Source of the DNA: Phoronis australis
Lineage: Eukaryota > Animalia > Phoronida
DNA: 64,000 nt
NCBI GenBank assembly: GCA_002633005.1
Contig: NMRA01000065.1
Coordinates: forward strand, 1,140,555 to 1,204,554
Reading direction: 5' to 3'
In this document: one piece after another, positions 1-57,350 of the stretch
How positions within the stretch are numbered: position 1 is the first letter of the stretch
How the letters are laid out: each line of letters starts with the position of its first letter
Program-made: the position numbers and the translations under genes
The notes under the pieces: model-generated
Seen by the model: only the letters and a program-made list of their open reading frames with translations
Databases searched by the model: none
What the model was told of the DNA's origin: nothing

Positions 1-2254
1 ACTCTCAGTCGGTTGAGTGTCGCTGCCAACTGCAATCTTCTTCAGACATATCCCTTGTTATCAACGAGATGTATATGGAACGTATCCAAGAACTTGTGGT
101 TCAAACCATAGACAAACTAACCAAAGAAAGAGGTCCTATCTACATCACTTCCAAGACAGTTACATCCACATCCCCAAAGATGGCGATACTGGTGAGGAGC
201 GGATACAATGGAGTCATACCTGGACGCCTTTCAATCAGATATTTTGGTAAGATGAAATTGCTGATGTCATCGTTTCCGAGATTTTCGTATTTCTCAAAAT
301 TCAAAGGGTTGGCATTTAGCATAGTAGTCAAGCTGTAGGCATCACAAAAGGACTTTTCAAAAAGTTGAGGATGGCGTTTAGTCAAACTGACAATTTTTAG
401 TTAACCAAGCATTGCTATAAGCCACTTCGTAAGCAAATCATGCGCAATATAGACAGTGAGCTTCTCATGAGTCGAAGGTGAGTGAACAGCATGCTGCTGT
501 GTTTGAGGAGCTGGAGTGAGTATTATGATTGTATTGTGCTATAAGTTACCAAAAGCTTTAGATATGTCATGTACTAAAGTGGTTGAGTTAAATGATGCAT
601 GGACATTTCAAAAATAAAATTCAGAAAATTAGATGATGGCCCTTTAGCCAAACGTAAACATTAATCCAAAGAAATACAAGTAATTGATGAACATCTTTTC
701 AGCAAGCTCTCCAGTGACATTGAGGTGTTCTCCCTCAGAGATCTCAGAGACACCAGTGATACTACCAGAGACAACTCCAATGGAACTACGGACATCAGCA
801 CCCTCTGGTGGAGACTGGAGTAAACACACAACTATTCAATCAAATCAACAACCTGGTCAAACCTACATGCCAGGTGAATACGAGAAGTGCGAAACACAAA
901 ACAAGAGGGCTGATGATACTTGACAAAGCTTTTGTAACAATCGACCATTTGCGGTATAACACATACCAGGTCTCAAAACTGTTGCAATTTCAAGTGTTGT
1001 CTAACAATATGCCTTCAGTCAAACCCATGAGTTAAGTATTTAGCTCACTGGTCAAATACTGCCACTCAAAAACAACGATGTTTTTATTATTGTATTATTT
1101 AGTATTTAGCATCTTCTAACAAGCTACTATAGCTATAACAAATAGGCCTTCATTTATGTTTTCAAAAGCTCAAATGGCTCAATATGATGGCAAAGTTTTA
1201 ATTTGATTAGGAGATGAAGCAAGCTTGGAAATGTTATTGAAGAATAATGACAAAAAAAAATGTTGTGCAATCTACCTTATTTTCAAATTTCTTCCCTTCT
1301 AGTGGCCTCTTACTTGGGTGTTCTAATAGGACTGGCCCTCAGCTTGCTCTCAATGGCAATTTTGATAACATTCATCATAATCAAAAAGTAAGTAGCCCAT
1401 GCCAACATTTAGCTCAAACTTCCGCAATATTATCAACATTTACTCACAAGCATTGCTTGCTATAAGGTAGACAATAGTCTGAATAGTTGGACACTGTTGT
1501 GTTAACATTGGAGTTGACTATGTGAATTAAGTGATCATAAATAATATGCACATGACAATATTTACACCAAGGTTCTCATGTCAGCCATTACAAGAACTAT
1601 AGCAGTTATTCAGGAAGCCAATCATGCACTTACTTCCAAATGCATGTAGGAGATAGCTAATATAGAAGTTAGAACAATCAAGCTTAAACTTCCTTCTAAT
1701 TTTATTACAGGAAGCCTACAGGATGCAAATGCAAACGACGAAAAAAGGCACCATCGAAAAAGTTTGTAACACATACGCCACCAACAATATCAAAAGTGGA
1801 CATTGGTGATCCCCAACTCTCCCTTGGCAATGGGCAAATAAGAGGCCAGTCAAACACAGGATATGAAATCAGTGAATATGATGACGACAGTTTTGAGGAG
1901 TATGACTCGGACTTTGATGGCGACTTCAGTGACCGACAGACCAGTGAGACCACAGCCAGCGAGGACTACCTAGTGCCAGTGGGCCACACAACAAAACACA
2001 GTGATGGCCGCCAGCAAGCACAAGTGACAGAACAGTGTTTGGCAGATAGAAAGGCAGATCCAGTAACATACCATGAGTATGGCCATAATGGGGAGGAGCC
2101 AATATATGAAGTCATAGAGGAAGACTGTTCAAGCGACAGTTTACGGAGGCGTCAGAGCGCAGCAGAAGCATACATTAAGTCTAAGGAGGTTACAGCGATG
2201 ACCGTGCGAGAACGTCCTGAGACTATTGACACATATGATGTGACGCAACTGTAG
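1..2254 (+). CDS. Receptor gene 1 (5'-truncated by window): CUB-like domain, stalk, TM, Tyr-rich tail. Exons <1-246, 703-873, 1303-1387, 1711-2254
   Basis: All introns are GT-AG with phases 1,1,2. First exon reads ..ECRCQL..GRLSIRYF, matching the paralog CUB-like exons. Stalk exon starts ASSPVTLRC. TM exon is VASYLGVLIGLALSLLSMAILITFIIIKK. Tail has EDYLVP, EPIYEVI, TYDVTQL*. AATAAA follows at 2258. Confidence 0.85.
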
Positions 2255-2589
2255 TGCAATAAACTATGTGTCTATATAGATATATTGATGACAATACTTG
2301 ACCCACTTTGATATTAAATATAACACAAAATACAATAAAATATAAAACAATATGACAGGAAGCAATTTCATGGATTACAGTAACTGCTGAAGTAAGGTAT
2401 TAAAAAAACTTTAAAAATAGTTGCAGGTTTTCAACAACTGTAACCTTAAAAAGAGCAAACAGTCTGCTGCTTATCAATAAGGGCAGCAGCTAATCAATAT
2501 TTGCACAACACCTGAAATATCTTTAAAATATACCAATTGTACATTCATAATGAATTCTTAAATTCCTTAGACTTCAAATAGGTGAATAA

Positions 2590-2759
2590 AACAACAAGAA
2601 TGGATCAACTGAAATTTTCAGATGTAATAACGTCCTTTGTCAACAGAAACAGAAATAACGCAAAATATATTATTATTATTATATTTTGCGTTATTTCTGT
2701 TTCTGTTGACAAAGGACATTATTACATCCGAAAATTTCAGTTGATCCATTCTTGTTGTT
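2590..2759. repeat. Near-perfect palindrome (about 80-bp arms), foldback/MITE-like
   Basis: AACAACAAGAATGGATCAACTGAAATTTTC...GCAAAATATA, a short TTA loop, then its reverse complement. Confidence 0.9.
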
Positions 2760-4795: not shown

Positions 4796-7700
4796 ATGTC
4801 TTGGATATTGATTTTACTGACAGTGTGGACAAGTGTAGACATCACGCACACTAGAGGTAAGATCTTAACATAATGGAGGACCCTAGAAGAATGGCCATAT
4901 TTTTCTAACTTTGGAAATCATAATTCTAGGAAATAGCCGATTGGATTCATAAAAAATTCAGATATTATTCTTTATACACTGCTTAGCACTGTTCTCCAAA
5001 GCGGTGTTAGAAAGGAATTGTTTTAAAGTGTTCCACTTGTACATGAGGGGCTATCAAAAATGGAATTTCATAAATAAAAACAAAATGATATCACAGAAAA
5101 CTGTAACAGCGTTTTTGACATTTCAGATTGAAAAATTAAATTTGGTCAAGAGCGTTAACTTTGTTTTTTGCTACATTTATTCAAAATACATGGTCACATG
5201 ACCCAGTAAATAGAAGATTGAAAATTTCATAAATCAAATTCTACTGGCTTTCTACTTTGAGAAAATATGTACTTTTATGGAGCTAAAATCAAATGACAGC
5301 AGAGTTCAGGTAAAGTAGGGTAAAGTTTTGTTTTAAATTTTATTCTTCAACAATATACACAAATAATTTTTTCAAAGGGTGAAAGGGTGAACAAGGAAAA
5401 GGGGTAAGGACTTTCACTCACACACTCACACACTCATTCACACACTTCATCACTTAATAATAATACCACTGAACAATATATGATACAGATACTACAGATT
5501 CATTGCATGGCAGCACTGAGGCACATTTTAATATTAATGTTGTCTGGTTCCTTTTGTTTTTGAAAATTAAATATTGTAATTTTAATATATTTTGACATGA
5601 ATAACTTAAGGGCAGACCAATCTGGATGCATCTGCTGCTGGCTAAGTAAATAAATAAAATATTGGGCAATAGTGATAACATAATTAATCAACAGGGAGAA
5701 TTCATTCTTGGTTATTCTGATGTCTTCCTCAAAGGAAGATGACAAAATATCCTGAACATTAATCAACAATCTTGGCACTACACCACAATGGAAAAATATG
5801 TTCAGTATTCTGTACTAGATTACAATAGGGGCATTTATCTGAATTAACAATCTTCATCTTATATAACAAAGAGTTAGTATACACTCAGTTATGTAACAAC
5901 ATATACTTAAAAATTTAATGATTTAATGCATGGATCGAGGGGAAGTGTAAAAGGCAAGGAATAAATTTTTCGGATATTTTGTTTGGAATAATGCTGCAAC
6001 AATTTTTCATAATTGTCTGGTTTTTTGCAATATTTTTGTAACAAAATACTCTTGATTATTCTTTTGCAATTTTATTGTTGCAGCCAACCAATCGCTGATG
6101 ACCTTGATCAATTTTTCTAGATAAAATAATACATATTGAATTAAAACTTAGAATTTGAGAATTTAACAATATTTATTTTGCCTTGAGCACCTCACACGAT
6201 AAAAGCTTATTTTCAGCATCAAGAAATTCATTGATGAAACATAGTCCATTCTTAGCAAACTCTTTATAATATAGTGACTTATTATAAAGTGTTATCTCCC
6301 TGTTATACCATATAATCTGATCACAAACAGGTACATCTTTAAAAGCCTTATGATTCAACTGCTCACTCACTGACAAAACCTCTCTATAAAAATCATCATT
6401 TACCGTTCTAAATAGTTTGCTTACTTTAAAATTACATGACCACAACAGTTCACCACCATAATTCTTGAGCATATGTTGTGGATAACACTTCCAACTTCCA
6501 CATTCTGGAGACTGAAGTCTTTTAACCCAGTGGACTAAAAGGCCTTCCTTTATAAGGGTCATGTCAGGAACTTTTAAACCACCATCTTCATGAGAGGTCA
6601 TTGCAATGCTTTTCTTTATTTTAGGTGGTTTCCCTGCCCAAATAAAATCATTCAAAATGTTGTCTATTCGTTTGCACAAATCCCTTGTCAATCCAAGGAC
6701 AGATATAACATGAATCAATTTGGATAACGCAAAAGCTTTAGTTATGATAATTCTTCCCTTAATTGCTAATTTTCTTGTTTTCCAAATACTTAGAACTTTC
6801 CTAAGTTCCGAATTTTTGCCCATTTTTTCTTTTTGATATTTACCGAAGTAAACGCCCAGACATTTAATATTTCTTTTTGGCCATTTTATATCACACATTT
6901 TCTTAAGTTCAGACTGGTGGCCTACTAAAAAACATTCCTTTGCATTTTCGCCTATTTAATTTAAGATCAGACTGTCACCAAATCTTGTGAGAAATTTAAA
7001 GCATTCTGTTCCCGACATTTCATCCTGGGGTTAGTTCTAATGTAATGACTCATGAACTCCACACATAGTATAAACAGTTGACTACTTACGGGGTCCCCTT
7101 GACGAAGGCCTCTCTTAACATTAAAATAACCACATGTAAATCCGTTGTTTTGAACACAAGACATAATATCATTATATATTGTTTTCACACGTTGAATAAA
7201 TTTGGGACCAAATTTAAAGGCCAGAAGGGTTTTCTGAAGAAAGGACCAATTTAAAGTCATACGCTTTCATAAAATCTAAGAGTACAATTTGTCCATTGAG
7301 ATTATTATTTGTATAATACGATATTATGTCCTGTATTAATCTAATATTTTGACCAATAAATCGTTTTGAAACAGACGTTTGGTCTGGATGAATAAGCTTA
7401 TGAATGTACTTATTTAGTCGGTTGGCAATAACCTTTGTAAGTTGTTAGTTGGCACATTTAAATTGAATTCATAATGGTTTATGGAATTGGACTTTTGCAT
7501 TTTCAATACAAAATCTTCTCTGGTTGCTTATAAGTCAGGCGATGTTCGGCCAGCACAAATTGCCAAACAACAATCAAATGGATTTTAAACAAACCTGTTG
7601 CAAATGTCATTATTTTTATTGACATACTTTACACGGGTAGGTATAGCACAGCTCAGACATCAATAAAAAAACTATACCATGAAAACATGGGCAAGGTAAG

Positions 7701-10700
7701 GTCATGAATTTGACAACACAACGAGACTCCATTCCATTTTGTTTAGCTTACAACATTTTGAAGACTTCACCGAACCGCATTCAGTCGGGGTTTAAAAATA
7801 TCTCCGTGCTAATCTGACCTTGAATTACTGCCCTAAGAGCTAGCAATACAGTCAAAGACTGCACCATTTTCTTTTGAATTTGTGATTACAAGGTGGCCAA
7901 ATGCAATAAAGGGTGTGTGTGTACATTGTTGTTCGACTGTATTTGAGTTTGTATAAATATCATTTTTTCAGTGAGGCCTGGAATATGTTGCAAGTAGTTT
8001 ATCACGTTCAATCCACCATCTTTTTGATCACATCACGTGACCTAATGAATATAAGTCCGAAAAGATTTCTGCCCCGGACCGAGACGCCAACCCAGGACCT
8101 TCTGATAACCGTGCAGACGCTCTAGCCACTGAACAATCAGGACCACTGGTAAAATAAAGAAATCCGATCCATAGAGATTATGGGTTAAGATGTCCACTAC
8201 TAAGTCTGTGTTTGACCAGTGGTCCCGATGGCTCAGTGGCTAGAGCATCTGCACTATTAGATGAAGGATGAAGGTCCTGGGTTCGCGTCCTGGTCAGGGG
8301 CAGAAATTTTTTCGGACTTATAGTCATTAGGTCACGTGATGCGATCAAAAAGATGGTGGATTGAACGGGATAAACTACTTGCAATGTAATTGAGTTGATT
8401 GAAACTTTCCATCAAGAAATGTATAGTTGACATAGAACGAGAACTTTCTCCGAGTAAAACATGACGACATTTATTGAACCTGTGGTGTAAATTTGAGGCA
8501 AGACAAATTCAGCATGCAATGTGCCCTGTAAAGAGTGTAGTGTGAATAAGACTCTATGGCTGTTACGTGTTTCAGAGCTGTATGGGTACCAGATCAAAAC
8601 ATCAGAGAGGTGTATACTAGACCCAGACAGACACCTGAAGCTAGAGTGTTCTTATGGGAACATCTTCATTGTGTCTGGCAGCTATGGTCTGGATGATTGT
8701 GATGGTGATCCTACCACAGTCTGGTCTCTAGCCTGCTTGTTGCCCCTCGCGCGACACCAACAGCAGTTGTACCAGAAGATTGTCCAACTGTGCTCTGGGG
8801 AGAGGGACTGTGACGCCATACAAGTGAGCCAGATAGGTCTGCCTAACAGGTGTCGCCAGCCAGGTGACCCAAACACACAGTACAGTAACTACCTGAGACT
8901 GAACTACATTTGTGTGCCAGGTATGGGGTAGTGTTAAAGAATGTAGACCTTTTCGTTGACGCTGTTACTGGTGTTGATTATTTGTCCAGTTTAAAGTCCA
9001 TGCTTGATTACAACCCAACACAAAAAATCCAAATGCTCACCACCCCTGATATTTTAGTTCCCAATTTAAGCACCATGGTTGGTAACCAAGGAAATGTACA
9101 GCAGCTCAAGGTGACAAGCAAGTGAAAAAAATTATTCTACCTTTCGTTTTCTCACAAAATTTAAGTAGCACCAAATAAATACATTATCACTTTGAAGTTC
9201 TATACACTAGTTACCATCAAGCAGACAATGCTTGGATGAATTGTGGGTAATAACAATAATGGTAGGAGGCTTTAAACAGATCAGTTTTGGTAACTATAGT
9301 GGTCCAAACTAGGTGAGATTTTAGTCTATCAAGTTTGCAGTACAAGAAATGCATGCTGAAATGGCTTTAGGTTCCATTTCTGTAACTTTGAAACTAATAT
9401 GGAATAGTGCTTCCTGAAGAAAACCTCAGTCACATAGCACAAATCCTTCTATATTGAACCCTATTCCACTCTGATGGTGTCTGAGATCTAACAACCACTG
9501 ACCTACTTTTCCAGATTCCCAGTACAGAAGAATCACACAGGTGTCAAACTTTACCTTCAAAAAACGTGGGGTCATAACAAGTTACGATTATCCAAAGCCC
9601 TTGCCTGGCATTACCATCACCCACAAGTGGCAATGCACTTTCACACCAGAGCAAAGAATGAAAGCCATTGCACTACGAATATTGGAGATGAAACTCATGG
9701 ACATTGTTAACTGCCAGCAAACAGTCATTGTGGAGTTGTACAGAAGAGTCCAGGACCACTCACCATTTCTAGTCCTGCCATACTATTGCCATTATTTGAC
9801 CAACGGTGAACCAAATGGACTGGCGAGGAAAATTACTGTCAAATTTGAAAACAGACATTCCAAGGCTGAAGGTCGGTTTGCAGTGCTCATAGCCAGTGAT
9901 TCGACTATCACTGGGAACTGCATGCAGGTGGCACCACTTGTTACAACACTGGAACCAACACATAACCCAACAACTACAACAGTGGTAACACCAACCATAG
10001 CCGAGGTAACAACAACAACAACTAGTACTACAGCAAAAACGACAACCGCAAAAAGGACATCATTGGTAACAACATTGGGATACAAAACGAGTCTCGCAAC
10101 AACAACCGAAAGAACATTAACCACAATAGATGACAGATCAACAATACCAAAGCCAACAACCACTGCCACGTCGTCTGTGAGCATGATGACAACAACGGAA
10201 CAACATGAGACCAGAACAGCTGACACTGGTAAACTGTCTACAATATCATCTGCTGTACTCACAACAATGGCACCAACTAAGAACACTGGCGAAAAGGGTA
10301 AAGTGGCAGAAATGTCAGGCAACAGCAGTAAGCAACACTTTGTTACTATTGATTCAGGTGATGGCATGACACCTCTGCCACCATGTCATGTGAGACAAAC
10401 TGTTCCCAATATACAATGTCTCATAGTAGATGAAAGGTTCCGATAAAATAATCCAAAGTGCACTAGGTATCCTATGCAGCACTGGTGTATGAGCGTGGGA
10501 AAGAACACAAGTCATCCTTTATTAAGCCTGGTTTGATGGCACAATTTACAGTCACAAGGCTGACTCGCAAACATTACCATTTGCCTCTGTTATCAACAAA
10601 AATAGAATGCAAATTACTATTTCTTTTGTTAAGAAGTCAATGTTGGCACATAATTGTTTGATGGAGTACTCAAGCTTATCAATAGAGGGCTCAAATTTGG

Positions 10701-12517
10701 AACAAAATTTCAAGTTAAAAATTGAAAAACAGCGGCAGTGGATATTTTGTGCATGTGAGCATCTCTACTTTATCAGAAGGCAACACATCTGAAAGAGACA
10801 TGCTGGACAGCAGATTTTCATGTTGCAAAAAGACTTAAGGTTATTGTGACGAACATTTAGCATTTAACCTATGATAATTTAACTTGTGATATTCATTTAA
10901 CTTGTTATATTCATTTATTGAGATACCATTAGATGCATGTTCACTTTCTTTTAGGAGACTTAATAGGTGGAATAATTGGATCTCTCATCACTGTGGTAGT
11001 CATAGCAACACTAATCACAGCTATTTTCTGGTATAGGTAAGAGATGACAATTTTCAATATCCTTAGGCCTTGTCACTATGGATACTCCTAAAGTAACCAT
11101 GGTAACCCAACAAGGATCCATTTGAAATGTTTCCCTCAAGTTGCATGACTGTGATAAAATACAAGACAAAGCTGAATCAGACGAAGTATCATTTCTCCAT
11201 CATGATGGCTAATTTTGTTAACAGCAAAAATGACTGCAAAATTGTAGTGACAGAATGGCTCAGCCACCTGGCTACCTTTCTTGTTCTCCTTCATGAGGAA
11301 AGACTACTCCGACAATGATTTTGGCACCATGAGGGGGAATTTCGCACCATGTTACATGAATACGTTTTGTGTGTATTCACATGAAAAAGTGAAAACAGTC
11401 CGAAGGTCAAACACAACAAGGGAGACAAAATGAGAAATGTACATCAAAATGTGCACAAAATACGTCAATATGCTGAAGCTGCATTTTCCTTTAATAGAGA
11501 TATAATTACGTCAATCATACTGGACGTCAACATTTCTTGTCATGATGGCATCCACTTTAAAATTCAGTAAGAACAGAGAGATAACTAGTGATTGACTTGA
11601 AGTGGTCAAAATTTGGGAAAGCTGACAAGACTTACGAGTTTCTGAAGCACCATTGACAAAAGAAATAAGAGTTTACCATATTCTATAGGAGTAGTCAGGC
11701 ACCGTTATGAACTCAATAGTTCCAACAGCTAAGCCAGCAGAAATGTATTTTCAGTTGAATTTAGTCATTGTTAGAATACTGTCAAATATCAACAAAATTT
11801 TGAGAAAAGTCAAACGATGTCTCATTATTCAGAATTCAGATTCACAGAAAACTATGTTCAGAAAACTGTTCTTTTAAGAATGTATTCAGTTTCTCAATTT
11901 AAACAATCTTTTGTGTTTCCAGGAGGCACAAAAACAATGACCAGGTGCATAGTAAGTCAGATAGCAATGACTACAATGGAGGGGAGATCTACTGTGAGCC
12001 TCATGAAGAAGACCGCTACGCCAGCTTACAAAGGGGCAAGGTTGGCCATCAATACACAACACTGGACATCCGCAACTACGGACGGCCACGACAGCCAATG
12101 AACGACAACAAATACAGCGAGCCCATAGAAAAGCTGTCTACACCTATGACCGGAGATTCATACGAGAAAGGTGCTCAACACACACAATCTCACCCGTACT
12201 CGACACATAGACACGGTCAGACGGTGAATTACAGTGGAGGCAATGCCAACAAACTCGCTATCATTGAGCCCATATACACTGAACTACCAGCAAACAACAG
12301 GCCGTACAACATGAACCAGCGTCAACTGCCAGCACTGCCAACAGCTTCACAAGCACCAGGAGTATACAGTGCACAGGCAACAACATGTGACAACCATGGA
12401 TCACCATTCGAGCCTTCTTATTTTGAGTTAGAACCGCCTACTAGCATGGTTCAAAACAACCCTACTTACACACATTCTGGGGAAGTCCCAAAACCTGAAG
12501 AAGTGATTTATTTGTGA
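4796..12517 (+). CDS. Receptor gene 2, SUEL-like lectin/CUB-like/mucin stalk/TM/Tyr tail, about 641 aa. Exons 4796-4856, 8576-8920, 9515-10357, 10955-11036, 11923-12517
   Basis: Signal peptide MSWILILLTVWTSVDITHTR (in-frame upstream ATG at 4763). Lectin exon has 8 Cys, L.LEC..I.IVSGSYG and NYLRLNYICVP. Stalk is Thr-rich. TM is LIGGIIGSLITVVVIATLITAIFWY. Joined length 1926 nt is in frame. The exon 3 donor is ambiguous (10297, 10327 or 10357, all phase 1). Confidence 0.85.
5550..7440 (-). mobile_element. Decayed L1/Tx1-clade non-LTR retrotransposon ORF2 fragment in gene 2 intron 1
   Basis: RT motifs IANRLNKYIHKLIHPDQ..RFIGQNIRLIQDII and RGLRQGDPVSSQLFILCVE, then FIWAGKPPKIKK..GGLKVPD and a C-terminal CPYC..EHIF zinc-knuckle remnant. 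Frameshifted and internally deleted. Confidence 0.88.
7987..8385. mobile_element. Inverted pair of tRNA-derived sequences (palindromic SINE pair or MITE)
   Basis: Arms at about 7987-8160 and 8204-8385 are reverse complements. The right arm begins GGTCCCGATGGCTCAGTGGCTAGAGC..GGGTTCGCGTCC, resembling Pol III A and B boxes. Confidence 0.75.
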
Positions 12518-13544: not shown

Positions 13545-13953
13545 TATATCTGCCCAGCCTACAGGCACACTGTCAAAGGTTGTACTCTATCTGTGCCCAG
13601 CCTACAGGCACACTGTCAAAGGTTGTACTCTATCTGTGCCCAGCCTACAGGCACACTGTCACAGGTTGTACTCTGTGCCCAGCCTATAGGCACACTGTCA
13701 TAGGTTGTACTCTATCTGTGCCCAGCCTACAGGCACACTGCCATAGGTTGTACTCTGTGCCCAGCCTACAGGCACACTGTCACAGGTTGTACTTTGTGCC
13801 CAGCCTACAGGCACACTGTCATAGGTTGTACTCTATCTGTGCCCAGCCTACAGGCACACTGCCATAGGTTGTACTCTGTGCCCAGCCTACAGGCACACTG
13901 TCACAGGTTGTACTTTGTGCCCAGCCTACAGGCACACTGTCATAGGTTGTACT
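13545..13953. repeat. Minisatellite, about 10 copies of a 39/43-bp unit
   Basis: TGTGCCCAGCCTACAGGCACACTGTCAYAGGTTGTACTC(TATC) repeated head to tail without spacers. Confidence 0.95.
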
Positions 13954-15108: not shown

Positions 15109-18100
15109 ATGTGGGCTGCCAGCCTGGCAGGTGTGTTTATGTGTTTAGTGTGTTCTGTGATGAGAAGACTAGGAGCTGAAGCAGGTATAACTGAACTGAT
15201 TCATGTCTCATGTAGCATTTAACAAAACTATTCATTTAGTTAGATGGACAGTTTGTCAATAAGATTGAAATCAACACCCTGCAGTCCAAACCAGTGTTGT
15301 TTATCAACACCTACAGCAAGAACAAACAGTACTCTACTGGTTATTAATGCTACACAATCAACGTGGAGAAAGTTATTTCACATTATGTCCAGCAGTCATT
15401 ATTAATAGTTTTTTAATCCGCTATTAAGACATTACTGTGTAACCCATACTTAGTGTGATATTTCAAGGAATCCAGGCAAGGCATCTCGGTTCAGAGCACA
15501 GCTTAAAGCAGCAAAAACGAACAAAAACCAACTTTGCAGATAGGTCACTTACTGGCATAAATGTATGTTAAATCATGGAAGTTTTTTATATGGGTGAATG
15601 TTATTAACCAAGGTTGCCCAGTAAACATTTAGATGAGGCCATGTGAAAAAAATTACTTGGCCTAGCAAGCGAGGTTAATAACATTAACTTAATAAAATGC
15701 ACACAGTTTAACATGTTTACACCATATAATTATTTAAATTTTAATTCACATTTCTGTGGCAACTCCTGTGCAGTAACTGCATCACATGACAGAACATTTA
15801 CAGTGACATGTGACACGATTACTGCACAGAGGCATCAAGACGTATAAGGTATGTCACCAGTTTCAGTTTGCTGCTTATTTAAATTAAAAATGATTACTAG
15901 GTGTGAGAAAAAAGTTGATGTATTTAACACCAGACCATGGTTTATAATAGCTTTAATAGTATTTTATAATTTATCCATGGTGGAAACAGGGTCACACAAC
16001 TGTCTATTGTCAGTGGCAAATTCTTGCCCTAGTAACTTTACAGATGACAAGTAGGGAATTACAGAAGCAGTAGATCCAGGAGTGATCAATAATGTTATCA
16101 TCAAAGCATGTTTTAATCTGATCTTATTATCACTCTGCATAGAATTTACAACTGAACCTTTGTGTTGATCATTCCAGAGTCAATTGGTGGATATGAAGTC
16201 AAGACACAAGCACGCTGTTTCTATAACGCCAATAGGTTCTTTAGCCTCAGTTGTAAAGTAGCGACTAAGATATACATTGTATCAGCCACCTACAGTATAG
16301 AGAACTGTAAACGTGGGCCGGATAAGTACACAGGGCGGTCATGTTCTAGGCCAGTACATGAGGTGAACCCTGTACAGTACCAGCATATGATCACCCAGTG
16401 TACAGCCAGACGACTGTGCTACAACAGAATACAGGCCACACAAGCTGACTTGAGGAATCACTGTAACACCACATTCTACACAGACACAGTGACTATTAAG
16501 TGGATATGTGTTCCAAGTAAGACTGCATGACACACGTTTTTTACTAGTAGTTGCCATACATGAAGCTTTCCAGAACTTTACCCACTTGGGCATCCTACAG
16601 CCCAAAATATCCTGCAGCATTGAAGAAAACGAGTAATTAGCAAGGTGATAGTTGCCACTAAGAATAATGAAACTATACAACCTTCAAGGAGGCAACAGCT
16701 AGGGAACATTTGACATTTAGCTCTTTAACATTGTGCACAAAAGCATCTTGCATGACCTAATCTTTAATTGAGGTGTGCAAAAAGGGCAAGTTGACTGGGG
16801 CAAAATGCAATTTCTTTTAGTTGCATTCACCCCGATATTTGAGACTTATTTGGAGATTTTTGTGTGAATCCCTTGATTATCCCAACACACAAAAGTGACA
16901 AATTGTCAGCATAAAGTGGGACTGCAAACTTAAAAATGCTGTTTACCAAATACTCAATGGCCACCTAGTCACATGGTGTATTTCATTACGGAGCTGCTGT
17001 ATCAGAAGATGGCTTTTCACAAAACACCTTACACAGTATTTGATGCAGACATGCATCCACAACAGTTCTTACAGCATATAGTTAATCCTGGTCTATGACC
17101 TGACTCATTTAAGACCTGCGCTCAAAGAATAAAAAAAAACACCCGTCAAGGACTTTTTCTTTTTGAAGAGCAGCACTATTGAACAATTGAGCAAGGTTTG
17201 AAATGCCATGGTTTGCCAAGCATTGAGTAAAATCAAACTCCGCAAAAAATAACAGAACCACCTACAGTATGCTTTTTTGACTACAAGCATTTCACCAAAA
17301 ATGTTTGTGTACTTACCAACTACATTTATACTTGATGTCAACTTTCAGCATCTGCAGCATTTGACATGTGTCCCAGCATGACAGAGTCAAAAATTGGGAA
17401 GAGGGGAATCTTGCAAAATACACGTTACCCACAATACAGTAGTTTACCACCATCAATGGATTGTCAGTGCAAGCTGTCTGTGATGAAACAGACCACAATA
17501 TCCATATGGATAGTAGAACTACAACTGAACAGTCAGAAGACTGCGTGTTCATCTGAACTGGCACTGACAGCTCCACACCAACCATCAGCCAGGTTTGACT
17601 GTCAGTACCGTGCTCAAACAATGGTAGTAAGGAAGAATCTAGCAAAAAGTGCTCAAGTAAAGGTGTTACTGACATCTGATGGCATCTCACAGAATGGCCG
17701 ATACACACTGCTCTATCAAGGTATGTTCACGCTCAAGTATTGTTAATAGAAAACAAACCAAGTATCAGTTTCAAAATTGTTAAAGCTGTAGGTGACTTTG
17801 CATTCTCAGTTTCACATAGTTACATTTAATGAATTGAATGGAGTTCACTTGATGCCATCTATGGCTAGACTAGATGCCTTTATTGTTGTCTGGAGCTCTA
17901 AGTGCACCTAAGGTTAAACATCCTTTGAGTCTGCTTAACCTGCACTGCTTGAGGTGAAAGCCTGTAATCATGCAATCATGCTCATTCAGGTAACTGTACA
18001 AATGTACAGGCAGTTAGGAACAAGAATGATATCTATCCTGTTATCAAGCTCATACTTTCTAGGAACAATGGCAGTTAATGTCACATGTGGACTCTACCCA

Positions 18101-21100: not shown

Positions 21101-21821
21101 ATATTGAACTTTTAGCTCTTCACAAGTATAGAAATAATTTCAATTTTGAATGAGAAACAAGTTAGACGGATCAGTTTTATATAACAGCAAGTGGTCTAAA
21201 TCCTAAGTAAGTCTTTATGGCAGATGGTTGGTCATCAGCAGGTTCGCTATAGTTCACCTCTCTTCCTACAGAAGGCATCCGGAGAAATCATGTCTCCAGA
21301 CCAAGGCAGTGGCAGAGGGAGGTACATCACCAACACCTGGTAGAGCTGATGATGAGGGAAACAGACTATCACATTTACAAATATCAGAGCCAGTACTGAC
21401 ATCAGCCACTAACCAACAGGTGGTGGCAGACAAGGGCTGTAAAAACATAGCTGAAAACGTGTACGCTCAACCTGGACAAGCAATCGATAGTAGTCTGGAA
21501 AATGTGTACCAAGACCCATGCAATCCCTTAGACAAAGGTGGTGGCTACACATCACTGTCTACTGGAGGGGCAGCTGGAACAATATATGATACACACTACA
21601 CAGTTTTGGACCACAGGGACAACAACTACACTTCCTTGAATGCTGGCAATGCAGGGCTACTGGACAGTTCAGAGTACACACCTCTAGAGGGAGCTGTAGA
21701 GGAAGGAGGTGTTGATAATAACATATATTACAGTATAGAAGCACGTGGTATGGAACACAGCAAGGAAGAGCCACCATACTATGAACTAGAGACCCAACCA
21801 GACAATGAAGCAATAGCATAA
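15109..21821 (+). CDS. Receptor gene 3, about 530 aa. Exons 15109-15184, 16178-16516, 17349-17720, 18063-18195, 19381-19424, 19763-19841, 21272-21821
   Basis: Signal MWAASLAGVFMCLVCSVMRRLGAEA. Lectin exon ends WICVP. CUB-like exon has RYP..DCQCKL..GRYTLLYQ. TM is AVAGGVSGAVVVLLVLTAVIVFLYI. Tail has many YxxL. Joined length 1593 nt is in frame. The two short stalk exons (phase-2 join) are the least certain part. Confidence 0.8.
20717..21097. mobile_element. TTAA-flanked TIR element (MITE, possibly Kolobok-like); relatives at about 4865-5300, 21873 onward, 39973 onward and ending 45963
   Basis: Left end TTAAGGTTATGTAGGGC, right end GGTCCTACATATCTTTAA. Internal ACAGCGTTTTTGA.ATTTCA is shared with 5105-5130. 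Confidence 0.65.
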
Positions 21822-22289: not shown

Positions 22290-22410
22290 TTCAGACCAAG
22301 CTGAAGAGCTAAAGATCGGACTCCTGGGTGTAGCAGTGGGATCCAATGGTATTTGAACGTACAATCTGAACATGAGGCAGACACTCAACCCACTTAGATA
22401 CACGGCCTCC
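22290..22410 (-). mobile_element. tRNA-derived SINE-like fragment next to an assembly gap
   Basis: Reverse strand reads GGAGGCCGTGTATCTAAGTGGGTTGAGTGTCTGCC..GTTCAAATACC (degenerate A/B boxes); no intact cloverleaf. Confidence 0.45.
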
Positions 22411-46869: not shown

Positions 46870-49800
46870 ATGTTGTTAACAGGCTGTGCACCTGTAGCTG
46901 TGTTACTTCTTCAGTATGCCTGCCAAGTATACACAGGTATATTATAGTTCTATAGTTATTTTACATTTCTAAACATAAGCAGGTTAAAGCTATCATGTCC
47001 ATTGTGTCCAACTTGGACTAAAAATTGGGACAGTAGTAGGTAACTATTATTTAAAATCTAAATTAGCAAATATTGCTTTGTAAAAATGTTTAATAGTAAA
47101 AATGTAACATCATTTAAAAACTTAGCTGCCACTCGACACATTTCTGTTAAATCACACTTATAGCTGTTACCTGTGCTTCCATACGGGTAGCAACTAGTGT
47201 ATGGGAAATGATGAGGGGAAATAGCTATTACACCTTAGTGAACTTAGGTGTTCATTGCAAGAGACACAGGAATACTTCTTGAAGAGACCGTTTTATTTTA
47301 AAGCTTCAATCTGAATTTCTGCCAGATTTAGGCAGGGTATGCGGCAGCAGAATTCCTTCCCCACTGCTGTAAAAATATGTTTCCCTTCCAGAACATTTGA
47401 CCGTGCCATAACATCAATTATTTAAAGTGAAAACTAACAAAAAAAGTGAAGACTTACAGCTAACTAGATGTGTGTTGAGCTCCGTTAGACACCTAAATTT
47501 CACACAGGGTGGCTCAGCTCGTCACCTCCTTGCAAAGCTAAAGACCGGCGGGGGTGCATGCACTGGAATCTGAGAATCAAACGACACTCACCTTGCCCGT
47601 TGCAACCGTTAAAGTGAAATAAAAAAAACAATATAACAAACTTCACTCTTGTGTAATTTTTCGCATTTTGTATCAGAGAAAAATCTGTTGTCGTTTAGAA
47701 AACAGTGCGCACATGCCAATTCTTAAAATTATATATCTCTCGGGAGATGATGACAGCTTCGCAGCAGAAAAATTTGTTACGCGAAACTGGGTTTGCTGGT
47801 GTTAAAATACTAAAAACAGAACAAAACCAGGTCCAATAATTTGTTATGACATGTACAAACTTGTGGATGAGAAGACCAGTTGATTGAAGAATCAGGGAAA
47901 TTGGCCAATAGGTGATGCAATATTTCATGGCGCTGAAAGCCGATGCAAAAGATCACATCACAAGGTCAGTAACAGAATAATGGTAGAAAGCCAATTTTTC
48001 CAACACCAGTAAATTATTTAGTTCACTCAAGGAAGAATGAAATTTTTAATGATATTAATTTTGGCAACGACAGGCCCGAAGAAGTATACACGGGACGGAA
48101 GCCGTAAAGAGTGAAATTAAGCCAACGGACTGACATCAGCCAGGCCGCTAAGCAGAGGGACATATGTCTTGGCCAGTACAAAATTGACCAGCCTCCCTCC
48201 GTGTCTTAATAAAACAATGGCCCGTGATAAAAAAATAGAACAATTCAAATCTAAACAGAGGTCTGGTGCACTACCTGGGATTAAGGTAGTGCCGAAATGA
48301 GCGCAGCGACAGTCTGTAGTGGAGCAGGGGAGACGGAGTTCCTGCGAACTTTTCCATTTTATACAATAGATTCTAAATCATTAATTACAATATGACCAGT
48401 TCTCCAAATAATCACTCCAAATACTTTTTTGTTAGATAAATGACATATTTTGTCTTATTTAGAATCATTTGAACGCATGACAGTGAAGAAAGCAGCAACA
48501 TGTTCTAGTGGAAGGATAACTCTACAGTGCAACTCAGAAAAGGTGTATGTGTTGTCATCAGAGTTTGCCTATATGCAGGGCACTAGCTGTGCTCCATGGT
48601 CCAGTCAGACACAATGCACAATGCCTGCAGGACAGTATCACGAGGAGATAGTATCCAACTGTTCAACATGCCACCGGTGTGCAGTCACAGTGGATATACC
48701 ACAACAGCAGTGTGAAACACACACAATCAACTCAATGATTGTCACGTATGGTTGTTCTGCAGGTATGACTAACAGGCTTTATTGTTAATTGAATGAAGAG
48801 CAAATGTCTTTGAATCAAAAATGAAGCACAACCAACCTGCCCTCAAACACAAATAAAGTCTGAATAATGCAAAAAACGTACACTCAATCATGAACCACGG
48901 ACCGTAAATTGCCATAAATATTTTAGTGGTAAATTCAAAATTGAAGTAAAAACACTGCTGTAGCTTTAAGACAGCCGTTCAATACTTAGTTTGAAACTTC
49001 ATTAGCGGAACTGTATAACTAAATTTTGTATTACAGGGGAACGTCAAAAGCCATTATGCAATGATGAAGAAAAAACTGAACGAGAAGTATTAGTCAGCAG
49101 CAACTACCCATCATATCTAGACAGTTCATCAGGCTACACTTGTCAATGTACACTGACTGCCAACAGTGACATCATCAGTTTGTCTGCTATAGAGATACAG
49201 CTGACAGATGGTCAAACACTACATGTAGTGACACACAGTGGTCAACAGGTGTATGACAGCTCCAACATCACACTCAAACACAAAATTGTACAACAACAAT
49301 CACAAGTCAACATCACATTCACAACTACTGGCGATCGTAATGGAGGAAGATTTGCTCTGGCATTTAGTGGTAAGTTCAGAGATCTTGTCAGAGATCTCTT
49401 GTTTCTTAGTTGCCAACTGTCCCACTTTTGGAAGGGCCATCTAATTCATTGATGCTTCATCCTTCAATTGTTAATTAACAGAAACACTGCTTTCTGACAT
49501 ACCAAACAATGTTTACATACTCATGCTGTTGTGTTCACAGACACTTTGTTTATTCATTTTGGATATTGGCAACCATGCAGTTTAAATACACATATCGGTC
49601 AGCCTGTTCAGCTCTGCTATAGGGGATCATTATCTCTTATCTGATTTTGTATACCTTACCCTATTGTGCCTGCATTGACTTCCATAATAAAGGGCTATTG
49701 TGGAGATGTTTAAACTGTAGGCTTGGGTAACAATAGGCATTCCTCTGCCTGTTACTAAAGACCAAGCTACACCACAAGGGAAAGCACTACTTTCAGCCTT

Positions 49801-52800
49801 TAGCTGGCCAAGCTTAGATATTTATGTCCATTTCAGTTGGCAGTGTTTTCGAAGAACTTCGGCCCAAGTATAAATATTACACTTCATTTCCCTCTGATAG
49901 CATGAAGCGCGCTTATCCCGAGTAAGAGATGATGGCTGTTGGAAGTTTAAACATTTGAAATGTTCGTTGTAAAAGGATGTTTCACGAATACCATAATCAT
50001 AGCTAGGGCCAAAACAGAGCAGTATTTTTAAAGTCATAAGTTTTTTACTATTCAAAGGCCACCTATTCTGATAGTGTTTTTGAATTCCAAGTTCGTACGC
50101 CACATGATGCATCGTCTGAGCAGTCTCAAAACTCCCCAGAAATAAGTAACTGGTGTCAAATTCACGCTACTCTTGATTTAAAATACGTAGGACATTTGTG
50201 CACTGAGATAGTACAATTCTCTGATCCCATTAGAAGACTAACCAATCGCGAGCATGCGCGCGCCCAGCCTTGAAAATGGGGGGGGCGAATTTCTGTCCAT
50301 GTGGACAAAAAAATCGAGAGGACTAAAAGAACGGGGTATGACCTATCAGAACTGTGCGTATGCATCTTTTTTAGTGGACTTCTGTCTCCTTTTCTCGGAC
50401 TTTTCGTTTAGTCTAGTCTGAGTGACGACAAGGTTTGTTTCTCGGCAAGTTGGGCATCAATTTTCGCCGTTCAACGACTGTATGTACCGTATTCGCCGTA
50501 ATAACCGCCCATGCCCCTATATAAGCGCCCCCCACGCGTTTTCAGACTTTGCTGAAATAAGCGCCCAGTCCATGAACGTGTACACGGGAACAATGACGTA
50601 CCTACAGTCCTAAAACTCGGCTACAGTAACGTCTTCAATTTATCAAAAAAGTTTTGCACGGGTCTTCTAGACCAACAGCGGCACTGCTACGTTTGTATTT
50701 AGCCGTGACTTTACACTTCAAAGTAACGCAGCGCTTCAAAAAGAACGCAACAGCGTTGCTACTCTCTCGCGACGACCGTGTCCCACTCTATGGTCTGACC
50801 TTTCGGTAGACACATCGACTGTCTCATGAATAAAAATAACTCGGTGTTAAACGCACGTGGCCAGGAAGCGCGCGCGCTACATACATGAACCTGTCATCAA
50901 AGACCTTAGTCGGGAATTTTCCATTCATGAAACGGGTAGCATAGCATCGATAAGAAATGAATATTGGCACTAATTTCCGACAATTTCTAATACTATAAAA
51001 CATGTTTGCGTTATTTTTGAGATGTATTGTTTGATTAACCATAATTGGTGTTTTTAAGCCGAACATCCGATAAAGTGACAACTGACAGTGAATGCTTACA
51101 CACCCTTACACCGAAAAATAACTGTCAGATAGTTACGTACGCATCCAGCTACACGGCGACTAATATGGGCCTTACCGAGACAAATGTCGAAAGTTTTTAG
51201 CACGAGACCGGCGAGTGCTGAATGAAACACGCTCTGGTTTAGGCCTACTGCCTGTGCAAATTTCTTTAGACACATCTAGCTAGTTAGAGTGCGTGCCTCT
51301 GGCCAAAAGACGGTCTCTGCTTTGGCAAATGAACTCTGGTGACACGCACGCGCTCGCTTATTCGCAGACGAACTTCAAAACAAACGTCACGTGACAACAT
51401 GTTTGTTCGTCCAGACATTTTTCTCGCCGTGTTGCCGATCATACATGTAGATGCACAGATTTGTATTTAAACCTGCCGTTAATCCAGACTCCACGGGAAC
51501 TTAAAAAATCTTAGAGATGCTACTTATAAAACTTAATGAGGATTTTAGGTAATTTGCTTGAGTCAAAACCATTTTTATTCAATCATTGAAATCGCCATAT
51601 CGAAGACGGCGATTTCGAGGCAGTCAGTCGGCGAGTTTTCGCCCTGGAATTTCAGCACAATTTTCTGTAAAATGGTCGTAATTTAGCTGCAAAGTTTGAT
51701 AGCAATGCACCACAGTTTTGTTGAAAGTCTTTCATAGATTACATATACGTCACAGAGCGTAAATTTTATGAATCTTAGCTTCCGATTTCACCCGTTTCGG
51801 AGACCGGGTTTCAACCGCCTTGGGTTACAATATCTGAAACTTCTATTCTGGTGTCTGCTCAAGGCCTAGTTAATGCTTACGTAATACTGCACAAGCGATT
51901 TGTGTGGTTGGCTGGCTCACTATAGGGCTATTGTTAGGACGGCTTTGTCATGAGCGACAGCGGGCAACTGGGATAGCGAAGCGGTTGCTCGCTGAGAGGG
52001 CTGACCCTCATGCACCAGAAAGTAGCAAAAATATCAAAAATAACACAACCTAGAGTAAATATTTGTTAATCAGATAGTGAAAATTTTATACATTTTTGTG
52101 GTTTTTAATGATTTGGAAAGAAGTAAGCCTAAGAATATTTGGTCATTGTTATAAATGCTTCTCAAGTTTCTGAAATGGATTCATAGCATTAGATAAATTT
52201 TCTTAAAAGATCGGAGAATTCACCATTGCAAACTGAAGAGGCCTCTTTAAACTAGCTTTCAATGGACCTCTAACATTAAGTGAACCAGTGATGTCCATGA
52301 CAATGAAAGATATCAACTCACACTTCAAAATTCTTTCAGCATCCCAGACCATAACCAAATGGTGCCAGATGACAACAACAAGACCTACCAGTGTACCCCA
52401 GATAACAACACAAGAACAGTCATCAACTGCCATCACCCAAAAGAATCATGCCACAGAAGCACCTCCAAGTACAGCAACAGCAACAACAACAATACCTGTG
52501 GAACACACATCACCTGCACACAAAGAAACATCATCTATATCCCCAGCAGGTTGCCTACAACCATCAATACCACCAGCAGCAACCAGCTGGGATTACACAA
52601 CCTACACCACTCTGGCATCAGAACCATCTTCAACTTTGACCACCAATGGGACCAACACTGCAGTCATGGCTGAAGAGACAAGTGATGGAGACAATACTAC
52701 TTTATGTAAGTTCCTTCAAGCTGACCAGATTATCTGAGGTACACCTCCGGACCTTTTGATGTGAACAATCGGTAACAAAACAAATTAACTCACAATGAAC

Positions 52801-54240
52801 CACTTTAATCAAAAAACAGATTCAACCATGTTTTCCTTAAACTGACACATAGGTGTTTCTATGAAAATCAGACTTCAAATACCACCAAAATCTTTTTATT
52901 TGAGAAACATGAACTATGTTAAACAATAACACACAAAGACCCTACTTATCAATATGTTTTTCTATTCTACTTTACAGACATCATCATTGGCAGTGTTTCA
53001 GGTGCAGTGGTCACAATCATTGTCATAGCTTTAGTGATACTGAAGATAAAAAGGTAACACTTCCATACATTACGAAAGTTTATAGTCTTAAGCAAACAAG
53101 TGGACACGTGAAACATGTCAAATTTCTCATTTAACATAAATACTAATAATTCTTTTATCTATAAGTAGGATTGTAGAATATACATTTCATAACACAATAT
53201 TTGTCAAAGTTTCCACAATTTGCAGCAAGGTTAATAATTCTTTGAAAAATGAAAATTTACACAGTTATTTTTGTGCAAAATAACAGAAGAATTACAGTAA
53301 ACTCATAGAGCAATTGAATAAATTTTCTCAGAACACTCTAAATGATGATGATTTACTAAATGATGGGCCCATGACCAATTTACTGGAGACCAACTGAAAA
53401 TCAACAGTATAGTCCCATCAAGTAAACATTCAAATTTTACACAATGTAATTAGGTAATTTTTAGTTGAATCTCAGGTGAAGTTTTGTGGTCATACGTCCT
53501 AGTAGGGAGATGTCAATTGACAGAAGTTTCCCAGTTGTTCAATGTTATCCTTCAGGAAACGCTTCAAAAGTGTAGAGAAACGACCATCTAGGGCAGGAAT
53601 TCTCCAAGAGGACCACACCCTAGATGAGCTTACAAGCATACCATCGACAAATGGGCACCCCAGAGACCAAGCAGTTCTGGACAAAGAAAATGGTGGCCAA
53701 AACTTGACCTTCAGACAAGCGATGAATGACAGACTAGCAAAGAAGCTCAAGCCTGAAACTAACCTTCCTTATGTTGAATTAGAACCTGAAATCGGCAAAT
53801 ATCAAGACCAAGGACAGATTAACAACAAGAATAGATCTCAGGGATTGGATGATGGTGATGAGAAAAGGGGTGACCAGAACAGAACTGTTGAAAATAGTCA
53901 AGAAGGAAAAGGAGGGGTGCCGCACTACATGGAACTGGAAGCAGAGCACAAACACACCTACGATAAAGATGACAAAGTTTCTAATCATAACGAAACTTTT
54001 AAGATTGAGTTTGATGAAAACAAGTATGAAGATCCACTGGATTTTAACACCAGCAATGACTATGATTATGACTATGCACGTTTTTACCAGCCAGATGAGC
54101 AACCATCTCATGAGCTGAACAATGATGAAGATATAAGAAACGAGGCTGTCTACCATACTATAGAAAGTGCAAGTGACACTGCTGATGAAGACCCATTCAA
54201 AGCATGTGACAGTGTGGTAGACAACTTAATATATGGTTGA
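46870..54240 (+). CDS. Receptor gene 6, about 608 aa. Exons 46870-46936, 48463-48762, 49037-49369, 52340-52705, 52978-53053, 53556-54240
   Basis: Signal MLLTGCAPVAVLLLQYACQVYT. Lectin and CUB-like exons are nearly identical to gene 5. Stalk is Thr-rich. TM is IIIGSVSGAVVTIIVIALVIL. Acidic tail has LPYVEL, PHYMEL, YEDP, YDYDY. Joined length 1827 nt is in frame. Confidence 0.87.
49593..50410 (+). repeat. Dispersed ~820-bp repeat, copy 1 (left part of a probable TIR element in gene 6 intron 3, possibly extending to 52006)
   Basis: High identity to 59370-60234. The start GGTCAGCCTGTTCAGC is an imperfect inverted match to GCTGAGAGGGCTGACC at 51991-52006. Confidence 0.8.
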
Positions 54241-55804: not shown

Positions 55805-56297
55805 CAGGGCTTGGAATGACCAATGACAAAAAACCCGGAAACTTTGAAACTTTTACGGCCCAAATCATGCCCGATAACCAGCCTTGAAATGGTCAATGTG
55901 AACCTTTCCCCGACAAAAATCGGAAGGACTAAAAAAAAAAAAAAAATGTTACCACCATCAGTAGCATGCGTCTGCGTCCTTTTAGCTCGCCCGTCCACTC
56001 CCAACCCACACATTTTTGGCTGCAGAGCGGTAGTATTTGTCGCCGCGCTTAACAATAACACGAGACGCCATTGAAAATCCCACCACGCTGTCCCAGATGC
56101 CCCGGCAATGTTGACAATTTACGTTCCTCCGAAACATAAAGAGCAACTTCCGCTTTTCGAGGTGAACGTCGTCTGCAACGCCGCGGTAAGAAAGGAATTT
56201 GCCGCGGAAATTTTATATCAAATCCGATTTTTTTACGCGGAATTATTATAAAAAAAGCGGAAAGCACATTTGAAAAAAGCGGAAATTCCAAGCCCTG
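55805..56297. mobile_element. MITE with CAGGG termini (hAT-like)
   Basis: Perfect 13-bp TIR CAGGGCTTGGAAT / ATTCCAAGCCCTG, flanked on both sides by TGTATA. Confidence 0.8.
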
Positions 56298-57295
56298 TGT
56301 ATATCAGATTTCTCTCTCGTGAGCATCCTACTATAGGACTGATTGTCTCTGATGACAGTACATGGATTTACAACTGTTCCAAAAAATTGAACGACATTTT
56401 GCAGAGCACTTAGCCCCTTAAGACCCAAAAGGTATAGGTAAAAAATCAATGTTCAATGCTATAGTCTGCATGGTTTATGCTCACAAAAAATATTTCTAGC
56501 GCCATTAAATTCAGATTTAATGGAAGGAAATTTGTGGCACAAGCTGGCATTATTTTATGTAGTAATTAATGCGCACGGTAAGGTCACACTTAAATTGATG
56601 GGAATGATACCAAATGTAGTTGGTCATGTGAATGATATATTGAGAGTATTATGTAGTAGTCAAAACTGTATAACCTAATAAAGTATAGGAATGTATCCAT
56701 ACTGAAGTGTAGGTTCAATGTGTAACTCCTTACATGAAAATAGTGCGATAATCCAAATGCAATGTTTTCAAAATGCACGTCTCTGTAGTTATTCAACAAT
56801 TGAAAAATGTGTTCATGGGCTATAAATAGATATTTAGAAAGACCTTAAAGAAATTATATGACAAAAATATGCAACAACATCAAAAATACATCAACCACCA
56901 CAGCGCATAAGAAGTGTCGCCAAAATGTATACAATTAAAACAAGTAATAACCATACTCATAAAACAATACATATGTATTGCTATCATAGCTGTTACACCT
57001 CCCCATACACACACTTAATGAATGGTTCTCAATGTTGCTCCATGCCAGAAACATACGATCATTTGCATTGTTTCTGAACTGACAAAAACACCATAGCTAC
57101 AAATGGCCATATAAAACATAAAACATGACGTATCACTTGAGGACAAACCTTAACATGCATTGTTTCCTAGGATTCCACAGTATCTCAAACCCATTACAGA
57201 AAAAAAACATGATAAAACGAATGCACGACATTGGACTCTTTTTTTGCTGTCCAATATCACCGAGGATGGTTGATATCCCAGACACGAACGGTAGG

Positions 57296-57350
57296 ATGGA
57301 TATACTGAAGGTACTTCTCATTGTGTTCTTCATCAACAAGGCCAAACAAG
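57296..57350 (+). CDS. Probable signal-peptide exon of a seventh gene; remaining exons not seen in this window
   Basis: ATG exon MDILKVLLIVFFINKAKQ (in-frame ATG also at 57266) ends in a strong phase-1 donor AAG|GTAAGT. Size, phase, strand and spacing from the previous stop codon match the other first exons. Confidence 0.55.

Follow-up and report, generated by a model that had tools for sequence, protein, structure and literature searches.

A 64,000-nucleotide stretch of the phoronid Phoronis australis (contig NMRA01000065.1, positions 1,140,555 to 1,204,554; hereafter the window) contains a head-to-tail array of five whole genes, G1 to G5, and one partial gene, G0, all on the + strand, which represent a real, apparently undescribed receptor family. 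The parts of the genes follow one order: a signal peptide, a SUEL/RBL-fold domain, a variant CUB domain, a Ser/Thr stalk, one transmembrane (TM) helix and a tyrosine-rich tail encoded by one exon. On balance, and by analogy with known receptor clusters, we favor the view that these are tandem non-catalytic single-pass receptors whose ligands would be proteins or surfaces that change fast, of microbial, parasite or non-self origin, and whose tails would signal by way of their tyrosine motifs. A first-pass annotation of this DNA had already proposed a recognition array; new beside it is the observation that two neighboring genes, G4 and G5, share an ectodomain and have unrelated tails.

The window is AT-rich (GC mostly 0.30-0.45) and contains introns, transposon remnants and two assembly gaps. 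When it was compared with itself in six frames, two types of exon recurred on the + strand, and gene models were assembled from exons bounded by GT..AG and free of internal stops. Spliced in silico, G1 to G5 encode 631, 530, 609, 531 and 608 amino acids, respectively, and the partial G0, which starts at the window edge, 347. G0 (3..2254, + strand; predicted, with an open frame) comprises the end of a CUB exon (3-246) and exons for the stalk (703-873), TM helix (1303-1387) and tail (1711-2254). G1 (4796..12517) consists of a signal peptide exon (4796-4856) followed by SUEL (8576-8920), joint CUB and stalk (9515-10327), TM (10955-11036) and tail (11923-12517) exons. G2 (15109..21821) encodes its signal peptide at 15109-15184, SUEL at 16178-16516, CUB at 17349-17720, stalk at 18063-18195 and 19381-19424, TM at 19763-19841 and tail at 21272-21821. 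The remaining three genes are predicted: G3 (25051..32515; signal peptide 25051-25123, SUEL 26241-26546, CUB 29499-29897, stalk 30520-30870, TM 31315-31390, tail 31891-32515), G4 (34051..39937; weak signal-peptide exon 34051-34126, SUEL 36100-36405, CUB 37846-38184, stalk 38539-38853, TM 39091-39163, tail 39451-39937) and G5 (46870..54240; signal peptide 46870-46936, SUEL 48463-48762, CUB 49037-49369, stalk 52340-52705, TM 52978-53053, tail 53556-54240). Exon 1 and the stalk acceptor of G4 were picked by phase and likeness to the paralogs.

The shared exon plan and phases described in the first-pass annotation hold for the core, with intron phases 1,1,1,1,2 in G3, G4 and G5, although the CUB/stalk intron is missing from G1 (1,1,1,2) and G2 has one additional stalk intron (1,1,1,2,1,2). 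All five whole genes are open, as had been stated, but at 530-631 rather than 530-641 amino acids: G5 reaches 641 only with a weaker upstream stalk acceptor at 52241, which we dropped because the acceptor at 52340 has a pyrimidine tract and matches the G4 exon start (both are predicted sites). Likewise, the count of six to seven genes stands as five whole and one partial; the seventh amounts to a lone signal-peptide-like stretch (57209..57350, + strand) that ends at a phase-1 GT donor and is a putative first exon. No SUEL or CUB exon was found 3' of 57350 in the rest of the window, which is interrupted by two assembly gaps, 381 N and 361 N long.

Splicing is borne out by RNA for part of the array. 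The data, three raw-read runs and one contig set matched mostly by species label, were placed on window positions 1950-21900 only. The 15 joints listed of 24 include all six G2 introns and the first of the four G1 introns (4856 to 8576; four reads in run X1), and G1 exons are covered in X1 and X4. In nearly all joint reads the first mate maps to the - strand, the orientation expected of + strand RNA in most stranded libraries. A first guess that placed G1 exon 1 near 7680 was dropped, since RNA puts this exon at 4796-4856. G2 is covered in all three raw-read runs and G1 in one of them: the G1 CUB, stalk and tail exons (9276-12605) have a depth of 2.9-4.0 in X1 and 0 in X2 and X3, a difference that may reflect tissue, treatment, a diverged allele or absence. 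One RNA contig has an in-frame 3-base gap in the G2 tail, at 21715.

The first of the repeated exon types, exon 2, encodes a domain that the first-pass annotation had expected to adopt a SUEL fold, an expectation supported here by profile and structural comparison. All five SUEL domains have the eight RBL cysteines, as read from the sequence. Pfam PF02140 matches one of the five exons (G3, E 8.9e-4), with 20 bits against a gathering cut-off of 31.4. Searched against solved structures, the five-exon profile hits the lectin domain of latrophilin-3 (E 2e-6), and among 1.84 billion representatives it has 56 matches at E <= 0.001; 29 of these were scanned, of which 25 carry PF02140, four no family and none a CUB domain. 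The ESM Atlas yields SUEL clusters (0.95); the recognition value, 2012, is below its 2300 mark. A structural model of the G2 domain (pLDDT 89.6, 36 rows) leans toward the SUEL fold because it was built with 31 SUEL-type relatives. Compared with CSL3 and SUL-I, the model gives Z 8.8, with root-mean-square deviations of 3.0 and 2.6 Å over 91 and 86 residues; across five RBL-fold chains (CSL3, SUL-I, latrophilin) the ranges are Z 8.4-8.8 and 2.6-3.2 Å over 86-91 residues, and the best unrelated fold gives Z 4.4. Foldseek ranked the SUEL/RBL family first (best E 1.5e-3, the LAT-1 lectin) and returned no match at E <= 0.001. On these profile, Atlas and structure-model matches, a SUEL/RBL fold for the first domain is well supported. 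A word-index protein search with the SUEL alignment found no further member among 3011 candidates, which is weak evidence.

The fold has been kept without its sugar site. In latrophilin-1, Glu42 (the residue after the first Cys), Tyr63, Gly117 and Lys120 bind rhamnose, and the replacements E42D, E42Q or K120R abolish or cripple sugar binding (PMC2430599). None of the five window domains has Glu after the first Cys (the residues there are I, F, K, S and S), and none has the loop-2 Lys (N, D, T, N and N). The motifs of rhamnose-binding lectins, YGR, DPC and KYL (PMC10817417), are complete in none of the five, the Tyr of YGR being present in G1 and G2 only. The SUEL heads are thus predicted, from these residues, not to bind rhamnose or galactose, and the term lectin, which the first-pass annotation applied to the array, is not supported in a functional sense because the Glu and Lys needed for rhamnose are gone in all five domains.

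To place these domains among other SUEL sequences, a quick tree was computed from 69 of 137+5 domains, leaving out the Lingula anatina protein XP_013419491.2 (P0001) and further repeats of most proteins. One branch (SH-aLRT 87, unstarred, with long branches) has on one side the five window rows, six Lingula rows, nine single-exon environmental rows and one other; the loop-2 Lys is absent in all 21 of these, and is kept in 45 of the 48 rows that stand with EVA1 and the canonical lectins. The window rows divide into four groups. The sample is biased, since the matches were picked by the window's own profile. The tree bears on the possibility that the proteins are glycan-sensing lectin receptors with an altered sugar specificity: the eight cysteines and the fold are intact, and Asn, Asp or Thr occupies the Lys position in 21 of 21 window-side rows, implying that this position is conserved in its own way. 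We nevertheless consider such a specificity improbable, given the loss of all three lectin motifs in five of five domains and the severe effect that replacing Glu42 or Lys120 has on monosaccharide binding in latrophilin-1 (PMC2430599).

Receptor RBL domains have been argued to bind non-carbohydrate ligands (PMC2430599), and latrophilin and EVA-1/EVA1C carry the RBL fold on the membrane, as the window proteins are predicted to do, and use it for protein binding. The genes could encode developmental or neural adhesion and guidance co-receptors, multiplied as cell-type labels. This reading, which we judge unlikely, draws on the best solved-structure matches of the SUEL profile, latrophilin lectin domains that bind proteins (teneurin and TOL-1 complexes), on EVA-1 as a single-pass RBL co-receptor, and on the coverage of G1 in one and G2 in three of the raw-read runs, which fits tissue-specific use. 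Yet the branch described above separates the window SUEL rows from those of EVA1 and canonical RBL proteins, and the architecture differs. Latrophilins are adhesion G-protein-coupled receptors with seven TM helices and a GAIN domain, whereas the window proteins have one TM helix; EVA-1 has two RBL domains, no CUB and a FAM176 region, whereas the window genes have one SUEL and one CUB-like exon, and a Pfam scan found FAM176 in none of the six tail exons. Latrophilins and EVA-1 moreover keep the loop-2 Lys in most rows and do not occur in divergent arrays. To our knowledge, extreme paralog divergence and homogenization confined to ectodomains are not usual for guidance receptors. The rhamnose-binding lectins CSL3 and SUL-I have the fold and the eight cysteines in common with the window domains but are soluble and have YGR, DPC, KYL and the Glu after the first Cys. 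Judged by sequence and domain content, the window family is neither a rhamnose-binding lectin nor EVA-1 or latrophilin.

The second exon type, exon 3, is supported by sequence profiles as encoding a CUB-like domain, in line with the earlier prediction. The Pfam CUB family matches four of six exons (E 9.7e-4 in G2 to 0.081), all below the cut-off, and the ESM Atlas gives CUB at 0.94, with ten of the ten best family matches of the G1 exon in one clan. A profile built from six window and two Lingula CUB rows (A3) has cubilin as its best solved structure (E 2.5e-4) and also matches chains of C1s, MASP, TSG-6, PCPE-1 and neuropilin; 16 of its 20 matches are, we presume, CUB-bearing proteins. The G0 CUB exon, itself a row of A3, matches it at E 7e-19. 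A word-index protein search with the CUB alignment found no further member among 7997 candidates, again weak evidence. At the position of the usual CUB motif, C-x-W, the window exons have C-x-C, and in every gene the stalk begins with a short stretch resembling a strand, after which comes one further Cys. Neither the first CUB Cys nor the first Cys of C-x-C is present in G1, from which we infer that these two pair, leaving the second Cys of C-x-C to pair with the stalk-start Cys. The stalks are 30-42% Ser and Thr and contain few tyrosines (7 of 596 residues).

Besides the signal peptide, each protein has one TM segment, and a GxxxG-type motif, read from the sequence, stands at the start of the helix in five of six. 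The first-pass annotation described tails that do not align and are nonetheless dense in tyrosine. Against shuffles, 14 of 15 tail pairs indeed have z < 3, the exception being G2/G3 (z 5.2), and tyrosine makes up 72 of 1154 tail residues (6.2%), whereas the two alternative frames give 18 and 31 of 1148 (1.6% and 2.7%). Motif expectations were derived from 5000 shuffles. YxxL/I occurs 20 times versus 6.5 expected, a count reached by none of the 5000, and YxxP 14 times versus 4.5, six of these forming one G3 tandem repeat; YxEL (8 versus 0.36) and (D/E)N(V/I/M)Y (5 versus 0.07) are patterns picked post hoc. ITAMs (immunoreceptor tyrosine-based activation motifs), by the consensus given in PMC9546547, number two versus 0.13 expected (p 0.01) and lie in two of the six tails, those of G1 (YxxL-x8-YxxL, 12017..12064) and G2 (YxxL-x6-YxxL, 21597..21638), both on the + strand. 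The G3 tail has six YQDP repeats and five YxxL/I, that of G4 two YxxM and one YxxL, and that of G5 three YxxL/I and one match, within chance, to the inhibitory counterpart (ITIM). The tails thus retain motifs even though alignable sequence is gone, each tail with its own mix. As a side observation, cysteines just inside the membrane in the tails of G0 (1711-1745) and G4 (39451-39475) are possible palmitoylation sites.

These features would fit the following mode of action. The SUEL-fold and CUB-like head would recognize the ligand, lifted from the membrane by a probably O-glycosylated stalk; ligand binding would cluster the receptors through the GxxxG-type TM motifs; Src-type kinases would then phosphorylate the tails, each of which would recruit its own set of SH2 proteins. 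ITAMs engage adaptors of the Syk/Shark type, YxxP motifs those of the Crk/Nck type and YxxM motifs those of the PI3K type; G1 and G2 would accordingly signal through their ITAMs to Syk/Shark-type kinases, G3 through its YxxP repeats to Crk/Nck and G4 through YxxM to PI3K.

The ectodomains of most paralog pairs are as divergent as the first-pass annotation had indicated, with identities of 14-32% (SUEL) and 20-29% (CUB), but G4 and G5 are exceptions at 83% and 89%. Their shared tract, which takes in the SUEL exon, both intron-2 flanks and the CUB exon, occupies 36092..38189 in G4 and 48455..49374 in G5 (both + strand). In blastn comparisons it has 85.6% identity over 376 columns and 92.3% over 520 columns. 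The likeness begins 8 bases 5' of the SUEL exon and stops 5 bases 3' of the CUB exon; within it, 174 bases of intron are 95% identical. Scores for the SUEL exon, the CUB exon and the intron-2 flanks are 423, 534, and 301 and 48, versus shuffle maxima of 22-29. Ten of the 11 other regions compared (among them exon 1, introns 1, 3, 4 and 5, the stalk, the TM helix and the 3' flank) do not exceed the shuffle maximum, and the tail exon barely does so (31 versus 29); at the protein level, the signal peptides, stalks, TM helices and tails of G4 and G5 are no closer than those of other paralog pairs. Selection on the protein cannot hold intron and synonymous sites alike (dS is 0.13-0.14), and a recent duplication of the whole gene is disfavored because the rest of the two genes would then be alike too. 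Gene conversion or exon-cassette exchange is therefore the simplest reading of the aligned tract. Either event would couple a single specificity to two outputs, in the manner of paired receptors, making G4 and G5 a natural experiment with one head and two tails. The shared ectodomain also lends indirect support to the self/non-self, pathogen or gamete role put forward in the first-pass annotation.

A very improbable alternative is that the array is decaying by birth and death, with some genes pseudogenes and the G4/G5 tract an accident of unequal crossing over. It would account for the transposon remnants inside and between genes, the weak G4 signal peptide, the nonsynonymous-to-synonymous rate ratio (dN/dS) near 1 in the SUEL exon, and two duplicated fragments in G4: a partial additional CUB exon copy in intron 2 (5' half only; 37458..37641, + strand; 87% identical to the G4 and 84% to the G5 CUB exon), and a copy of the TM-exon end and donor in the next intron (39138-39452, 79.5%), which could permit an alternative splice. 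It is at odds with six of six frames open over four to seven exons, with tails that keep their motif enrichment without alignable sequence, and with the transcription of G1 and G2.

The nearest named relative of the family is found in the brachiopod Lingula anatina. The best match, LOC106180142 (P0001; E 1e-25), and its cluster mate LOC106167120 (XP_013401280.1, P0057) are both annotated as uncharacterized and are the only ones of 58 proteins compared to match the window CUB profile (Lingula versus window CUB: hhalign 93.7%, E 2e-7). Like the window proteins, they have the SUEL type without Glu and Lys and a variant CUB with C-x-C and a Cys in the following strand. P0057 resembles the window proteins further in its Thr-rich stalk and single TM helix, and differs in comprising 1489 amino acids with a signal peptide and three SUEL-SUEL-CUB repeats. 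A word-index search with the SUEL-CUB region of Lingula recovered, among 294 candidates, nothing beyond the query, which is likewise weak evidence. No description of the SUEL-CUB-stalk-Tyr-tail architecture was found in CC-licensed PMC and bioRxiv, although supplementary gene tables could list members; the first-pass annotation, too, did not recognize the architecture as a named family.

Several known receptor clusters offer analogies. The Hydractinia Alr genes are, as portrayed in PMC9546547, likewise clustered single-pass genes with one domain per exon and ITAMs in some tails, with low paralog identity, kept cysteines and tails that have diverged more than the ectodomains; unlike the window proteins, they have Ig-like and Fn3-like ectodomains and, for Alr1 and Alr2, a genetically shown function, and homology was neither found nor expected. 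The window TM cores contain no charged residue of the kind that activating paired receptors often use. Paired receptors (KLRC/NKG2, Ly49, PIR and Siglec-11/16) parallel G4 and G5 in that homogenization in opposing leukocyte pairs is limited to the ligand-binding exons, the signaling parts being unlike (PMC3210942, PMC5701461), but their folds are C-type lectin or Ig. In the snail Biomphalaria, resistance to parasites has been linked to GRC, PTC2 and LG5R, which are clusters of single-pass genes that have diverged from one another (PMC7494358, PMC13712769); PTC2 is reported there without a known domain and LG5R is scavenger-class-F-like, and the terms SUEL and ITAM are absent from the main text of PMC13712769. 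In our comparison, the window family belongs to none of these groups but would work like them, and the cluster likely functions in the manner of vertebrate paired immune receptors.

Several observations weigh against this receptor interpretation. Known membrane RBL proteins, latrophilins and EVA-1, serve neural wiring rather than immunity, and the tail of P0057 is short, with few tyrosines. The CUB profile built from window rows only found no match among solved structures, and a CUB model from six rows has pLDDT 36.6. Of the ITAM/ITIM tails to which the first-pass annotation drew an analogy, the ITAM part stands for two of six; across the six tails ITIM (2 versus 1.9 expected) and YxxM (2 versus 1.0) are not enriched, and an ITAM is in neither the G4 nor the G5 tail, so that an activating/inhibitory pair is not evident from these motifs. 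Both splice models are predicted, and G4 or G5 may be a pseudogene. Between them dN/dS is 0.82 (SUEL) and 0.47 (CUB), neither significantly different from 1, and the diversifying selection suggested earlier does not emerge as clear positive selection. In favor of the interpretation, a different RNA contig departs from G2 at 9 of 342 SUEL-exon bases (16178-16516) and 1 of 369 CUB-exon bases (among the differences listed; Fisher p 0.009), but this is a single-contig hint of polymorphism that counts synonymous and nonsynonymous differences together.

The dN/dS values also bear on whether these are gamete-recognition or egg-surface receptors under reproductive selection. CUB domains occur in fertilization proteins, and fast divergence fits such a role. 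It was in egg lectins that the SUEL domain was originally discovered (PMC8878817). Neither dN/dS value exceeds 1, however, and several unrelated signaling tails, with ITAMs among them, would suit graded cell responses better than a species-specific lock; we regard reproductive receptors as improbable. More ambitiously, the recognition receptors favored here could constitute an undescribed lophotrochozoan immunoreceptor complex, with a sugar-blind SUEL and variant CUB head, pairs formed by ectodomain conversion and ITAM signaling. It would then represent the KIR/Alr design invented a third time, independently, and a candidate locus for self/non-self or parasite recognition in molluscs, brachiopods and related groups, a proposal that we put forward tentatively.

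The role of SUEL proteins in lophotrochozoans is described as still elusive (PMC8878817), and in snails, resistance has been mapped to single-pass gene clusters that for the most part lack known domains (PMC7494358). For lophotrochozoan defense, the receptors that act through Syk/Shark-type and other tyrosine signaling are largely unsettled. Ordinary immune-gene surveys would miss the window family, as both domains score below the Pfam cut-offs. If the paired reading is true, homogenization of the ectodomain only, a pattern reported for leukocyte receptors of vertebrates, had a separate origin here on an unrelated fold.

Transposons and repeats lie in and around the array. G1 intron 1 contains a non-long-terminal-repeat (non-LTR) retrotransposon remnant (6176-7266, - strand; RVT_1 piece, E 1.5e-5), on which RNA reads from diverged copies fall. 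G3 intron 2 holds the 3' portion of a non-LTR retrotransposon (27880-29001, + strand; 356-amino-acid open stretch, zf-RVT E 5e-9, poly(A) end), which is a relative of the element at 6176-6955. Between G4 and G5, a DDE_Tnp_1_7 transposase, which we take to be piggyBac-like, spans two frames (43253-44539, - strand; E 8e-67 and 9e-8). Long palindromic repeats resembling miniature inverted-repeat transposable elements at 2568-2781 and 7988-8384 attract heavy read cover from other copies, and a tandem repeat separates G1 and G2 (13542-13954). Finally, a repeat of ~820 bases (89%), without a Pfam match in the one frame scanned, occurs in G5 intron 3 (49593-50409) and 3' of the array (59370-60234).

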